NCBI GenBank assembly: GCA_963808625.1
Contig: CAWEHK010000051.1
Coordinates: 32,001-96,000, forward strand
DNA: 64,000 nucleotides
Origin: an uncultured delta proteobacterium
Lineage (GTDB): Bacteria; Desulfobacterota; Syntrophobacteria; Syntrophobacterales; Syntrophobacteraceae
Direction: 5' to 3'
Shown piece by piece: positions 10,815 to 18,725 of the stretch. A model generated the notes under the pieces. The model was not told where the DNA came from, ran no database searches, and saw nothing but the letters and a program-made list of their open reading frames with translations. The first letter of the stretch is position 1, and every line of letters starts with the position of its first letter. A program made the translations under genes and the position numbers.

Positions 10815-10947
10815 AAAAAAGCCACGACGACAGTCAACCCTCTTGGTCGAAAAGCCTTCGTGGCTCTGATTGTTTCCTAAAAACGCTCTGGCCTTTGCTG
10901 CGTTGCCTTCTCACCTTCCTGGTGAGGATCGCCTTCCCTTTAGCGCA
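10815..10947 (-). promoter_or_regulatory. Candidate dual-hairpin attenuator, copy B (before receptor 1/ABC operon)
   Basis: On the minus strand: CTCACC-AGGAA-GGTGAG, then AGCC-ACGAA-GGCT overlapping terminator AGCCACGA...TCGTGGCTTTTTT. Close paralogue of 18592-18725. Confidence 0.75.
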
Positions 10948-11391
10948 GATGGGCTAAGATTTCAAGCTGAAAATGAGAAAAGAAGCACATACCGTCCGGA
11001 TTTTTTGCACCTCACGATCCGAGACTCCGATGCACGCCATATATATTAATGGAGAGCAGGTTCCGCAGACTATTATGCAGAGACCACAGCGCGGCGTAGC
11101 CGCAACCAAAACTGGGTGGGAATATTAACGATACCAACAGGTTCCAAAGAAAATCTTGGCAAAAAAACAAGAAACTCGGCATTAGTATCACAGGCAGCCG
11201 CTCGTCACGGCGAGCTGAACCTTTCAGCAGAGGATTTATACCGGAGTTTCAGTGGCTTCACATATTGCTTGACGAGCGCTCAAGGGGAAGCTAAGGAATA
11301 GCGGTCCCCGGGTTCGGAGAAAATTTCGCTCAATGAATGGGCGGGCCGGTGTGGTCCGGGGTTCGGTTTTTCCTGCCTTAATTTTATAGTA

Positions 11392-11497
11392 TCTGGATCG
11401 AAAACATAGACTGTTTCACTGCCAGGTTACCTCGCAAATGAGGCCACGAAGGCCCCTGAGCCCGCTGTGAAAGCGGGAGGGGCGCCGGTATGTGGCA
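11392..11497 (+). promoter_or_regulatory. Candidate attenuator, copy C (before receptor 2)
   Basis: GGCC-ACGAA-GGCC (11442-11454); GCCAC can alternatively pair with GTGGC (11492-11496) just 5' of the RBS AAGGAG. TATAGT lies at 11385. Confidence 0.55.
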
Positions 11498-11516
11498 CAT
11501 TCGCAAGGAGCCTATC

Positions 11517-13563
11517 ATGATTACCCGTTTCTTTTCCCTCCTGGTTCTTTTCCTGTTCGTTTTCATGCTCAGCATCGGGTTCATCGCACCCCTGGGCGGC
11601 AGCGCCGAGGCCCAGGACGACGACAGGGCAAATCCTCTTCGGATCAAGTCCCACTGGTGCGTCGTCCGCCACCGCAACCCCCAAGGAGAAGACCTATGCG
11701 CTGGAAGAGATCCTGGTGGTAGCGCCGCCTGTCATCGAGGGCAACCAGGTCAACCGCCTCGGGAGTCAGTCGACCGTTGTCAGTGAAAAACAAATCGAAG
11801 ACCTCAATGCCCAGGACCTCCCGCAAGCACTGCGCATGGTGCCCGGCGTCGTCATTTCCCGATTCAATCCCATCGGCAGTTTTGGCGGGCGGTGAGGGCG
11901 GCTCCATTTTCATTCGTGGCCAGGGCAGTTCACGGCCGGGAGCAGAAGTCCTGACGCTTATCGATGGCATCCCCAAGTTCGTAAGCGTCTGGACTCACCC
12001 TCTGATGGATGTTCTGAACGTGGATATCGCCGACAATATCCAGGTCTATAAGGGAGCGCAGCCGGTGCTCTACGGCAATATGGCGGTTGCCGGCGCGGTG
12101 GACATCACGACCAAGCGGAAGAAAGAAGACGGATTCTACACCAACCTTCAAGCCGCAGGCGGTTCCTACAACAGCGCCATCGAGGTCGCTCAGACCGGCG
12201 GCAGGATAAAGGCCCTGGACTATTACCTGGTCCAGAGCTTTCGCCGCTCGGACGGCCATCGGCCTGATGCCGACGGCGCCTTGCAGAACTACTTCGGGCA
12301 TATGGGCTACCAGATGTCGGGGAACTGGGATGCGGGCGTCACCTTCAACGCATCCAATAACTGGGCGGACGATCCCGGACGCATCGACGGCTTGGCCCCG
12401 ACCCCAGGGAACGTTCAAAACCAACGGACTACTTTACGGTGGCAACCATCGCCAACCAATACGAGTCACACGGACGGTTATTTCAAGGCCTATTCGGACG
12501 TCGGCCACATCAAATGGCTGGACCAGTTCAACACGACCACCAAGAAGAACACGGACGACACCCTGACCGATTACAACAATTACGGTTTCAGGGCTCGTCA
12601 AACGGTTAAGAGCATGGGATGGCGGGGAATTTCTCCTGGGCATGGATCTGGATGCGATCAGCGGACAGGTTGACCTGGTTTCGCCGTCGGCGGCAAGGCG
12701 GCATTGGGGCGATGAAACGTGGCATATATTTGCGCCTTACCTTGCCTTAAGTCAATTGTTCGGATCGAAAGACAGCTTCTATGCCATTCCCTCCGCCGGC
12801 GCCCGTTACTTTTCTCACGATCAGTTCGGGACCGAAATGGGGCCCCAGGCCGGGTCTGATTCTGGGGTACAAGGATACGGAATTCCATGCGATGTATTCT
12901 CGAGGCGTCAATTATCCCGGCCTCTTCGTGAAGGCGAACAGCGATCTCTTCATGCCGGGAGACAACAAATGGCAGAATTTGAGCCCCGAGACCGTCAATC
13001 ATTACGAAGTGGGCATCAGTCAGCGATACAAGAAATGGGCGAAGATCGATTTCACCCTTTTCTACGACGATGGTGACAATCGCATTGTCACGACTACGCC
13101 TCCTCCCTTCCCTCCCCTCTGGACCAATTTCGGGGCGTACCGCAACAAAGGCGTGGAAGGCACCGTGACGGTCTTTCCTCTCGATGATCTCTCCCTTTAC
13201 GCAGGAGCGACCTACCTCGACACCACGCCTTCCGATCTGCCTTATGCTCCCGAATGGAGTACGAGCTTCGGCGCGAACTACCGGTTCCTGAAATACTTTC
13301 AGGCAAGCCTGGATGCCCTTTATCTCACCGACTATTTTGTCAATTCCCGCGCCCGCAGTGCCACGGCCCTCAATATTGACAAGGTGGATGGCTATTTTCT
13401 CTTGAATGCCAAGCTCACTTATGATTTCAATATGCCTTTCCGCCAGATGAGGGGCCAGCTCTTTATCGCCGGCGAGAACTTGACCAATGCAAGCTACCAA
13501 CAAAAAGCCGGCTATCCCATGCCGGGGATAAACGGAATGGGTGGATTCAAACTGACTTTCTGA
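11517..13563 (+). CDS. TonB-dependent receptor 2 (several frameshifts)
   Basis: Signal peptide, plug (IFIRGQG...LIDGIP...IQVYKGAQPVLYG...AGAVDITTK), LSPETVNHYEVG, C-terminal GENLTNASY...GYPMPG...GFKLTF. Confidence 0.85.
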
Positions 13564-13586
13564 AAGGATTGACGAGGGAACATCCG

Positions 13587-17464: not shown

Positions 17465-17515
17465 ACTCGTCCTCCTCAATCGATGCTGCTCGGTTCGACC
17501 TTTTGCTCCTGATTC

Positions 17516-18019
17516 TCAGGCCTTCAAGTGTTTGACAGGTTTCTCAACACCGAGGGACGAATTTTGAGACCGAGATTGATGTCGGATTTGGGCAAGGTCG
17601 CTGCCATTCATGATGGCGGACAGATGTTCGTTGACCAGCTTGTCAACCAGATGAGGCAGAGGGGTAAAGACGGTGCCCACAATGACCACAGGTTCCAGGG
17701 TGAGGGGCAGCAGCAGTTTGATCGCCTTCGCTGCACCGGTTGCGTGGGCCATGGCCGGACTGACCTCTCCCATCATCGCGTTGCTGATGATAATCGAAAT
17801 CGGTCCGATGATCACATCCACCTGATGGACACAATGACAGACGGCGTTTTCTCCGGTCGCACCCCGGTTTGCACCGACTTTCATCATCTGGGAAGTCGCC
17901 ACAGCATTGGTTCCGATGGCCCAGATTTCCACCCTCTCGCCATAGGCCTGCCTGATCTCTCTGATGATAGCGGAACCGATACCCGCTCCCTGTCCATCTA
18001 TTACTGCGATCCGGATCAC
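17516..18019 (-). CDS. DUF3842 family protein
   Basis: IAVIDGQGAGIG, AIGTNAVATSQMMKVGANRGATGENA, NAMMGEVSPAMA. Confidence 0.85.
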   Translation of the reverse strand: MIRIAVIDGQGAGIGSAIIREIRQAYGERVEIWAIGTNAVATSQMMKVGANRGATGENAVCHCVHQVDVIIGPISIIISNAMMGEVSPAMAHATGAAKAIKLLLPLTLEPVVIVGTVFTPLPHLVDKLVNEHLSAIMNGSDLAQIRHQSRSQNSSLGVEKPVKHLKA

Positions 18020-18037
18020 AATCCCACTCCCTGAAAC

Positions 18038-18226
18038 TTAGCCTTCTTCCAGCACGATCCGGTGATTGACGAGATTCATCTCTTTAATGCGTCCCTTCAC
18101 CCAGCGCTGTTGTCCAAAGATGCCCTGAATGAAAACGTTCTCACTATCGGGCTTGATGATATCCGCGCTTTCCATAATGAGCTCTTCTTTCCCTCCAACG
18201 AGCAAATAAACGTTTGCCTCACACAT
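18038..18226 (-). CDS. cooT: CooT-family nickel-binding protein
   Basis: MCEANVYL...EELIMES...IFGQQRWVKGRIKEMNLVNHRIVLE. Confidence 0.88.
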   Translation of the reverse strand: MCEANVYLLVGGKEELIMESADIIKPDSENVFIQGIFGQQRWVKGRIKEMNLVNHRIVLEEG

Positions 18227-18591
18227 CTTCTCATCCTTTCTCCCCAGTCTGCGTCCTTAGCAAACTGCGGCATTGAGATCCTGAAAGCATTGCTTCGAGA
18301 AAACGCCCTCTCACCTCCGAAAACACTCTCCGCTCGTGCCAAAGATTGCCGTGAAGCTTTTCGTCTCTCCTCCTTCCTCCTGAGGGCATGGCGTCGCATG
18401 AACAAGAAAAGCCACACAACGCGGTTCACCCATCTCCGGGCAGGTTAAAGACTTTCGCAGCCTTTGCTTCACAAGCTGAACGGAAAGCTTTCCGCAACAC
18501 AAATGTTCGCTGATTTACGAGAAAGGCACAAGAAACGCCTCAGTCGAGGCAGGTATCAACAGAGGGGCGGGAGCGCGTGGTGCTGTCGGAC

Positions 18592-18725
18592 AAAAAAATC
18601 CACGACGACATTCAACCCCTTTGGTCGAAAAGCCTTCGTGGCTCTGATTGTGTTCCTAAAATGCTTTGGTTGTTGCTGAGTTACTCTCTTACCTTCCTGG
18701 TAAGCATCGCCTTGTTTTTAGCGCA
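18592..18725 (-). promoter_or_regulatory. Candidate dual-hairpin attenuator, copy E (before cooT-DUF3842-cooT)
   Basis: On the minus strand: CTTACC-AGGAA-GGTAAG, then AGCC-ACGAA-GGCT overlapping terminator CCACGA...TCGTGGATTTTTTT. Confidence 0.75.

Follow-up and report, generated by a model that had tools for sequence, protein, structure and literature searches.

Why should two stretches of about 130 nucleotides (nt), lying upstream of genes that are unrelated by sequence, resemble each other so closely? The question arises in a 64,000-nt stretch of DNA from an uncultured deltaproteobacterium of the Syntrophobacteraceae (contig CAWEHK010000051.1, positions 32,001 to 96,000; hereafter the window), where leader B precedes a TonB-dependent receptor gene and leader E precedes cooT, both on the minus strand. 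An initial annotation, made from the letters alone, had proposed that selection acts on the structure of the RNAs. We computed the repeat, its hairpins, their covariation and overlap with terminators, the gene context, the co-occurrence with the protein family DUF3842 and the anti-correlation with the nickel regulator NikR. Our data indicate that B and E are almost certainly genuine cis-acting attenuator RNAs, members of a family that is real, widespread and apparently undescribed and that serves metal, probably nickel, uptake. The explanation that we favor, and that we hold on balance to be correct as a whole, is that DUF3842 proteins read these attenuators and antiterminate transcription upon nickel shortage, in a manner resembling ANTAR proteins.

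Leader architecture and the predicted folding switch

B and E align with 83.4% identity across 145 nt (E-value 3e-36), as expected from the likeness first noted, and the 29-nt block quoted as identical in both extends to 31 nt (10843-10873 and 18621-18651), an exact match that 0 of 100 shuffles equaled. A blastn search of the 4.8-Mb genome did not find a third full-length copy. The main feature of both leaders was absent from the initial annotation: a second hairpin, with a loop like that of the first, overlaps an intrinsic terminator. The upstream hairpin P0 (10910-10926 in B, with a stem of six base pairs (bp), and 18688-18704 in E) carries a C-AGGAA-G loop, and the downstream hairpin P1, GCC-ACGAA-GGC in B (10854-10864) and predicted by folding at 18632-18642 in E, is capped by a loop that matches it, both being C-ANGAA-G. 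A spacer of 44 nt separates P0 from P1 in both leaders. The 3' half of each leader consists of a long hairpin followed by six to seven uridines, i.e. an intrinsic terminator. In B, it spans 10815-10865 (arms 10865-10858/10828-10821, inner hairpin 10850-10834, U tract 10820-10815) and is mutually exclusive with P1, and in E it spans 18592-18643, with one G.A mismatch near its base and a U tract at 18598-18592.

A simple promoter and terminator scan missed the promoters and the main terminators, the B terminator owing to its internal loops, and promoters were called with our own, looser sigma-70 score and a shuffle control. The predicted promoter of B lies at 10937-10965 (-35 hexamer 10965-10960, 17-nt spacer, -10 hexamer 10942-10937) and that of E at 18715-18743 (-35 at 18743-18738, -10 at 18720-18715). 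The spacing is alike in B, E and the orthologue of B in a genome of the same genus (G007), comprising a TTG hexamer, 17 nt and a TA... hexamer that ends 10 nt before P0. Across the family described below, 54 of 77 leaders have their best sigma-70 match ending 4-21 nt upstream of P0, compared with 13 in shuffles. The leaders are presumably transcribed, and transcription would start just behind the -10 box. An outer stem CUAAA/UUUAG, suggested earlier to close both leaders, does not withstand this analysis: its pair probability is 0.001 in both, and CUAAA falls on the -10 hexamer predicted for B and E, so that it is most likely not transcribed. A count of its columns in the alignment would be unfair because the two UUUAG sit one column apart. 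By eye, we found no reading frame common to B, E and a further copy, F, that could encode a leader peptide.

Folding predictions are consistent with a switch. P1 forms in the nascent RNA with a probability of 0.93-0.98 across B and E (0.93 in B), compared with 0.0003 in the full leader B; it folds earlier than the terminator, which then outcompetes it by 5.4 kcal/mol in B and 6.3 kcal/mol in E. In only 51 of 139 leaders of the family does the terminator pair the whole AGGC arm of P1, so the conservation of this arm has another cause than the terminator. In the mechanism that we propose, the RNA would fold P0 and then P1, both with their C-ANGAA-G caps; without a bound protein, the longer terminator would dismantle P1 and transcription would stop (off), and a protein gripping both loops would hold P1, block the terminator and allow the metal-uptake genes to be read (on).

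Conservation of the element across a widespread family

P0 changes from CUCACC/GGUGAG in B to CUUACC/GGUAAG in E around AGGAA, exactly as first described, and the conclusion drawn from this one pair could not be carried by it. The AGGAA loop, termed invariant, is so in B and E only, the family loop being ANGAA or NGAA (AGGAA accounts for 4 and GGAA for 1 of 78 upstream-hairpin loops); the C-G to U-A change is present, but G007, the sole same-genus orthologue that covers this pair, has C.A; and with no more than two or three sequences, the covariation signal does not rise above the shuffled level (341 of 500 shuffles equal it).

The family provides what the pair does not. A typical member has a promoter, then P0 capped by a C-ANGAA-G loop, about 15-105 nt of spacer and P1 (GCC-AYGAA-GGC), with P1 and the 5' arm of a terminator overlapping. 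A strict pattern of P1 plus terminator arm matches 39 of the 122 genomes of the class, compared with one match in the control; of 30 class loci that were fetched, 6 had no U tract or were located inside coding DNA and were dropped. A scan of GTDB genomes returned at least 120 loci in Desulfobacterota, Nitrospirota, Bacillota, Acidobacteriota, NC10 and Spirochaetes, and matches in Blastomonas and Thermoplasmata were judged to be chance and excluded from later counts. Of 141 leaders, 39 have a second, upstream hairpin with a strict C-ANGAA-G loop (0.84 in shuffles and 0 on the reverse strand). When NGAA is allowed, 78 of 139 leaders have a second loop upstream (7.6 in shuffles) and 32 have one on the hairpin inside the terminator (5.0 in shuffles).

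These sequences covary. Among 59 copies of P0 selected on the loop alone, 86% of the cells are paired (53% when shuffled) and the covariation score is 0.82, against 0.195 in shuffles and no more than 0.196 when the partners are slid. Five of the six P0 pairs vary on both sides and all four Watson-Crick types occur; the pair next to the loop 7-mer is Watson-Crick in 93% of 55 cases, compared with 28% of 416 occurrences of the same 7-mers elsewhere. The terminator pair at the variable base of the loop is C-G in 93, U-A in 39, U-G in 6 and C.A in 1 of 139 leaders, and the outer pair of P1, with the stem left free, is G-C in 55, G-U in 9, A-U in 6 and unpaired in 5 of 75. The sequences are related and the changes are not independent events. 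Selection on RNA structure across the family, and with it the central claim of the initial annotation, is well supported by these comparative data.

Could B and E represent no more than the duplication of a promoter region, carrying either a constitutive terminator or an operator in the DNA, with no regulatory RNA? They do have a recent common origin, since they are also alike in parts that the family does not conserve: the inner hairpin (22 of 25 positions) and the linker (34 of 45), whose reported divergence is only mild. B is more similar to E (83%) than to its G007 orthologue (77%). In G007, cooT-DUF3842 stands directly before a B-type leader, with cooT behind a tonB-like gene by eye, and an E-type leader before cooT was not found. 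Between the two genomes, 92 of 130 third codon positions of the receptor, 26 of 46 linker positions and 13 of 13 P1 positions are identical. E is, on this comparison, a lineage copy of B, both copies being under the constraints of the family and their identity beyond the motif stemming from the duplication; the earlier rejection of a recent duplication was thus right as to constraint and incomplete as to origin. A purely duplicated, non-regulatory region is nonetheless barely credible and largely refuted, as the stems change sequence yet keep pairing, the element occurs in at least six phyla, and the asymmetric loop is found solely on the transcribed strand (reverse-strand control 0 of 141), which also makes a DNA operator unlikely. 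Transposase-like open reading frames (HTH_29/HTH_32) lie at 15860-17174 on the plus strand, directly behind cooT-DUF3842-cooT, and may relate to a rearrangement that placed E.

The genome holds five copies of the leader, three of which (F, C and one on another contig) were found by profile search and motif scans; B/C and E/F form divergently oriented pairs. Copy F (18852-18954, plus strand) has an upstream hairpin with a variant loop (18852-18866), P1 at 18901-18911 and a terminator that reaches 18947 and is followed by a U tract. It precedes an operon (19023-23578, plus strand) encoding nikM/cbiM, a NikL-family protein, nikQ/O, an outer-membrane protein and DUF4198, which resembles nikMLKQO. 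In copy C (11443-11496, plus strand), P1 (11443-11453) is part of a long helix that stops just before the ribosome-binding site of a second TonB receptor (start 11517), and there is no U tract. The fifth copy (L303:3454-3600, contig C50) bears its second loop on the inner hairpin and lies before a second nikM/cbiM-Q-O operon. The receptor gene behind B (8605-10671, minus strand) is spread over several frames, being frameshifted in the assembly, and is followed by genes for a periplasmic binding protein and then FecCD/ABC proteins. Behind E, a first cooT (18038-18226; Cys2 and His55 kept), a DUF3842 gene (17516-18019), our candidate reader of the leader, and a second, divergent cooT (17255-17464; Cys2 kept, His55 lost) follow each other on the minus strand. 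The genes behind B and E, taken initially to be unrelated, are so in sequence only: metal uptake and nickel binding relate them functionally.

The target genes set the sense of the switch. We scanned 104 of the 137 first downstream genes and tallied them by hand: uptake families account for 62 (15 TonB receptors, 12 CbiM/NikM, 4 DUF4198, 3 NikA-like proteins and others), and the remainder includes 8 S-adenosylmethionine methyltransferases, FmdE, CobN, ChlI, tetrapyrrole methylase, DUF3842, CooT and 19 genes without a family. None of the 104 is from a metal-efflux family. Because holding P1 would turn uptake genes on, the switch should respond to shortage, which we believe a protein that binds upon metal shortage fits better than a metal-binding aptamer. 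In guanidine-II riboswitches, two loops dock on each other around the ligand, and a protein-free RNA of this kind, closing around a metal or metabolite, would agree with the twin loops, their conserved closing pair and the use of a terminator as expression platform. We regard it as rather improbable here, given that only 5-7 bases are conserved per hairpin, that the spacer is so variable, that stabilizing P1 has the wrong sense for a metal shutting down its own importers (the 62 of 104 uptake genes) and that the motif is tightly linked to a protein family, DUF3842. The leader is very probably read by a protein.

A candidate reader and its signal

Within 4 kb of 77 loci, CooT is encoded at 11 and DUF3842 at 9; the other small soluble families present in at least 4 of the 77 neighborhoods are, by eye, methyltransferases, FmdE and tetrapyrrole methylase. 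In a survey of 50 of the 76 motif genomes, 42 have DUF3842 and 39 have CooT, four having DUF3842 without CooT and one CooT without DUF3842. Across 261 genomes of the phylum, a loose pattern occurs in 78, of which 46 are left once P1 and terminator must both pair; this strict motif is present in 45 of 102 genomes with DUF3842, compared with 1 of 159 without it. DUF3842 is found in 21 of the 22 motif-bearing families of the phylum, and 10 of the 31 families with DUF3842 show no motif. Among 271 clostridial genomes, the motif occurs in 9, every one of which has DUF3842, compared with 90 of 270 overall; 2 of the 9 had been picked via the motif. Within the class itself, co-occurrence is uninformative, as DUF3842 and CooT are present in 114 and 113 of 122 genomes, respectively. 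A structural model of DUF3842, predicted with confidence (predicted local distance difference test score 94.7), shows a small domain of Rossmann-like fold, in which a glycine-rich loop is invariant. From this co-occurrence, we infer that DUF3842 binds the leader RNA, and propose that it is probably the reader or an essential part of it.

Several observations weigh against this reading. By the relaxed test, 44 of 139 leaders lack a second loop. DUF3842 is missing from 8 of the 50 motif genomes, two of which were judged to be chance matches and the rest of which are metagenome assemblies. The contrast between genomes with and without DUF3842 softens to 54 of 102 versus 24 of 159 with the unfiltered loose pattern, the strict filter being our own, and the genomes in all these counts are kin, so that significance is overstated. 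The strict motif is missing in 57 of 102 DUF3842 genomes of the phylum and 81 of 90 of Clostridia, and only 4 of 20 clostridial DUF3842 loci have a variant leader nearby, these four being stem variants before nikM or energy-coupling factor (ECF) operons that include DUF3842. The DUF3842 model has no fold match among known RNA-binding proteins (best Z 9.5, generic; no Foldseek match at E 0.001), a sequence search returned no solved relative and the ESM Atlas gave DUF3842 clusters only. At E, the terminator is mismatched and about 360 nt (18227-18591, minus strand) separate it from cooT, a spacer that is unique in the genome and among the fetched loci and contains two more terminator-like hairpins (18551-18536 and 18424-18412), so control of cooT by E is uncertain. 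Some targets in Bacillota are ECF S components of unknown substrate. Finally, the evidence is computational throughout, and transcription with its start site, termination, protein binding and the identities of reader and signal are what we infer from it.

Part of this evidence would fit a different reader for the same attenuator, with DUF3842 belonging to the metal-uptake module only as a helper or as one of the genes under its control: its lack of an RNA-binding fold match, the majority of DUF3842 genomes without the strict motif, and the second DUF3842 gene of this genome (L301:2215-2655, contig C5), which lies directly before cobU and cobS and has no leader motif. The alternatives that recur near the motif are limited to CooT, methyltransferases, FmdE and tetrapyrrole methylase (by eye), and in two phyla the motif is nearly confined to genomes with DUF3842, which makes such a reader unlikely. 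In the clostridial loci L305, L306, L321 and L323, a long gene resembling mutS2 by eye follows immediately behind DUF3842.

CooT is known as a carbon monoxide dehydrogenase chaperone and bears the label of a predicted, Sm-like RNA-binding protein. It could itself, in its nickel-free form, bind the loops and antiterminate. The Rhodospirillum rubrum protein (RrCooT) is dimeric, each dimer binding a single nickel via Cys2 (PMC6006190), a residue that is invariant in 38 aligned motif-neighbor CooTs, and CooT is encoded near the motif at the 11 of 77 loci and in the 39 of 50 motif genomes mentioned above, including the one that lacks DUF3842. We consider direct reading by CooT very unlikely, as four motif genomes (one a record titled chromosome) have DUF3842 and no CooT, as CooT also occurs in methanogens, which served as a control, and as its model gave clear matches to CooT structures only, Hfq scoring Z 2.9 and no other Sm protein being listed. 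In the mechanism centered on DUF3842, the likeliest reader or core component, the likeliest signal would be nickel shortage, relayed in many genomes through CooT, a nickel binder whose gene is adjacent.

Nickel is quite probably the main signal. Of the 122 genomes of the class, 2 have NikR; this genome does not, and the NikR operator (an inverted repeat with a 13-14 nt spacer) has 0 sites in the window at up to 3 mismatches. Among the 261 genomes of the phylum, 12 have both DUF3842 and NikR, 90 DUF3842 alone, 110 NikR alone and 49 neither. In lineages without NikR, the proposed system would take its place. Operons of the nikMLKQO type, which the one behind F resembles, are under NikR control in other deltaproteobacteria (PMC545781). 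Cobalt, a corrinoid or several metals could instead be the signal of the same DUF3842-linked attenuator. This would account for points that tell against nickel: NCBIfam labels the S component as cobalt transporter CbiM, the targets include CobN, ChlI, tetrapyrrole methylase and BtuCD/F-like proteins, and the second DUF3842 gene sits beside cobU-cobS. The anti-correlation with NikR, the NikL-family and NikA-like targets and the likeness to the NikR-controlled operon speak for nickel, as does the finding that the cobalt and B12 genes of the window, cbiK and btuB, carry cobalamin riboswitches instead of the leader motif, and we deem a cobalt-type signal fairly improbable. Searched with gathering and E-value thresholds, Rfam gave nothing relevant for the window, for either leader or for 20 homologous loci; the only matches at gathering score in the window are these two riboswitches (33935-34106 and 35552-35733, minus strand), before a BtuB-like receptor gene and cbiK, and one transfer RNA gene (38857-38930, minus strand).

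In Bacillota loci L049, L084, L085, L115 and L321, the gene behind the leader encodes an ECF S component whose substrate is unknown; DUF3842 is nearby (L321 also has DUF1893), usually without CooT, and the S component is a candidate new metal importer or points to a second signal. Other features of the window bear on different matters. Between 5424 and 23578, many genes are split across frames (both TonB receptors, the binding protein, hydrolase-FmdE, and nikQ fused to nikO), which suggests assembly indel errors rather than many pseudogenes. Intergenic arrays of 7-base repeats in both orientations lie at 41138-41289, 41430-41556, 49075-49219 and 54456-54572. Short palindromic repeats at 28306-28362 and 43220-43285 have units containing ACGAAG, and we saw no terminator or metal-gene link for them. 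A PIN-domain gene (3059-3505, plus strand) is probably half of a toxin-antitoxin pair.

Known systems and biological significance

The closest counterparts are the dual-hairpin antiterminators bound by ANTAR proteins, exemplified by the targets of EutV, NasR and AmiR (PMC3369931). These targets share with B and E two small like-looped hairpins, the second of which overlaps the 5' arm of the terminator, a conserved closing pair, a default-off state, which we predict for B and E, and several copies per regulon, including the operon of the regulator itself, in our case the candidate. They differ in having 6-nt loops with A1/G4, instead of 5 nt (ANGAA) or 4 nt (NGAA) that are mostly C-G closed, and a spacer of 5-12 nt in Enterococcus faecalis eut rather than the 44 nt of B and E (PMC3369931). 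The target genes differ too, being metal importers here, and no ANTAR gene was found in this genome, whose assembly is 85% complete (the same search was positive in 3 of 5 genomes).

The NiCo/czcD riboswitch controls nickel and cobalt exporters through a terminator and folds as a four-way junction. RNA-level control of nickel and cobalt genes via a terminator is common to both systems, but our leaders have no match to it in Rfam (window, leaders and 20 loci), no four-way junction, and importers instead of exporters as targets. The cobalamin riboswitch RF00174 likewise has no match at B or E, with two true ones elsewhere in the window. PyrR, an enzyme-like alpha/beta protein that binds a leader hairpin and thereby promotes termination, offers a precedent for a Rossmann-like reader; its attenuators differ in loop, genes and effect of binding, Rfam gave no relevant match, and no pyrimidine gene occurs among the scanned targets. 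Binding sites of CsrA/RsmE have ANGGA loops, to which the AGGAA of P0 in B and E is similar (weak PrrB_RsmZ score in Rfam, 12 bits with a cut-off of 44), but GGA is found in just 5 of 78 upstream loops and in none of P1, and the leaders described here overlap a terminator. The NikR regulon of deltaproteobacteria has similar target operons, nikMLKQO and nikMQO (PMC545781), and differs in that control here would act on RNA after initiation rather than at a DNA palindrome, NikR and its box being missing and NikR being mostly exclusive with DUF3842.

Our literature search found no description of the leader family, with subscription papers largely outside its reach, so an earlier mention is possible. 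The main texts of PMC11109978 and PMC8632094 contain no nickel, cobalt, cbiM, DUF3842 or TonB, and their supplements may list the motif; the accessible parts of PMC12591593 and PMC11247825 describe no such system, and searches for DUF3842, for CooT with LSm and for a nickel antitermination RNA motif returned nothing related. The class of mechanism is already known; the RNA motif, the probable reader and the signal are probably new. In summary, the observation that opened this study is confirmed in part and its interpretation is in part supported.

A survey from 2009 already suggested that nickel importers are controlled independently of NikR (PMC2667541). Many anaerobes that depend on nickel enzymes lack NikR, as do all but 2 of the 122 genomes of the class studied here, and the leader is a candidate for the mechanism they use. 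The leader also singles out, among TonB receptors, porins and ECF components whose substrate is unknown, those that are probably nickel importers. If the proposed mechanism is correct, it would provide a first function for DUF3842 and a second role for CooT, two proteins of 62 and 140 residues in a small system. More tentatively still, it could amount to a third kind of bacterial nickel sensing beside NikR and metal-binding riboswitches, in which DUF3842 might be a new Rossmann-like RNA-binding antiterminator that clamps two ANGAA loops, with CooT as its nickel sensor, and which may replace NikR in whole classes of anaerobes.

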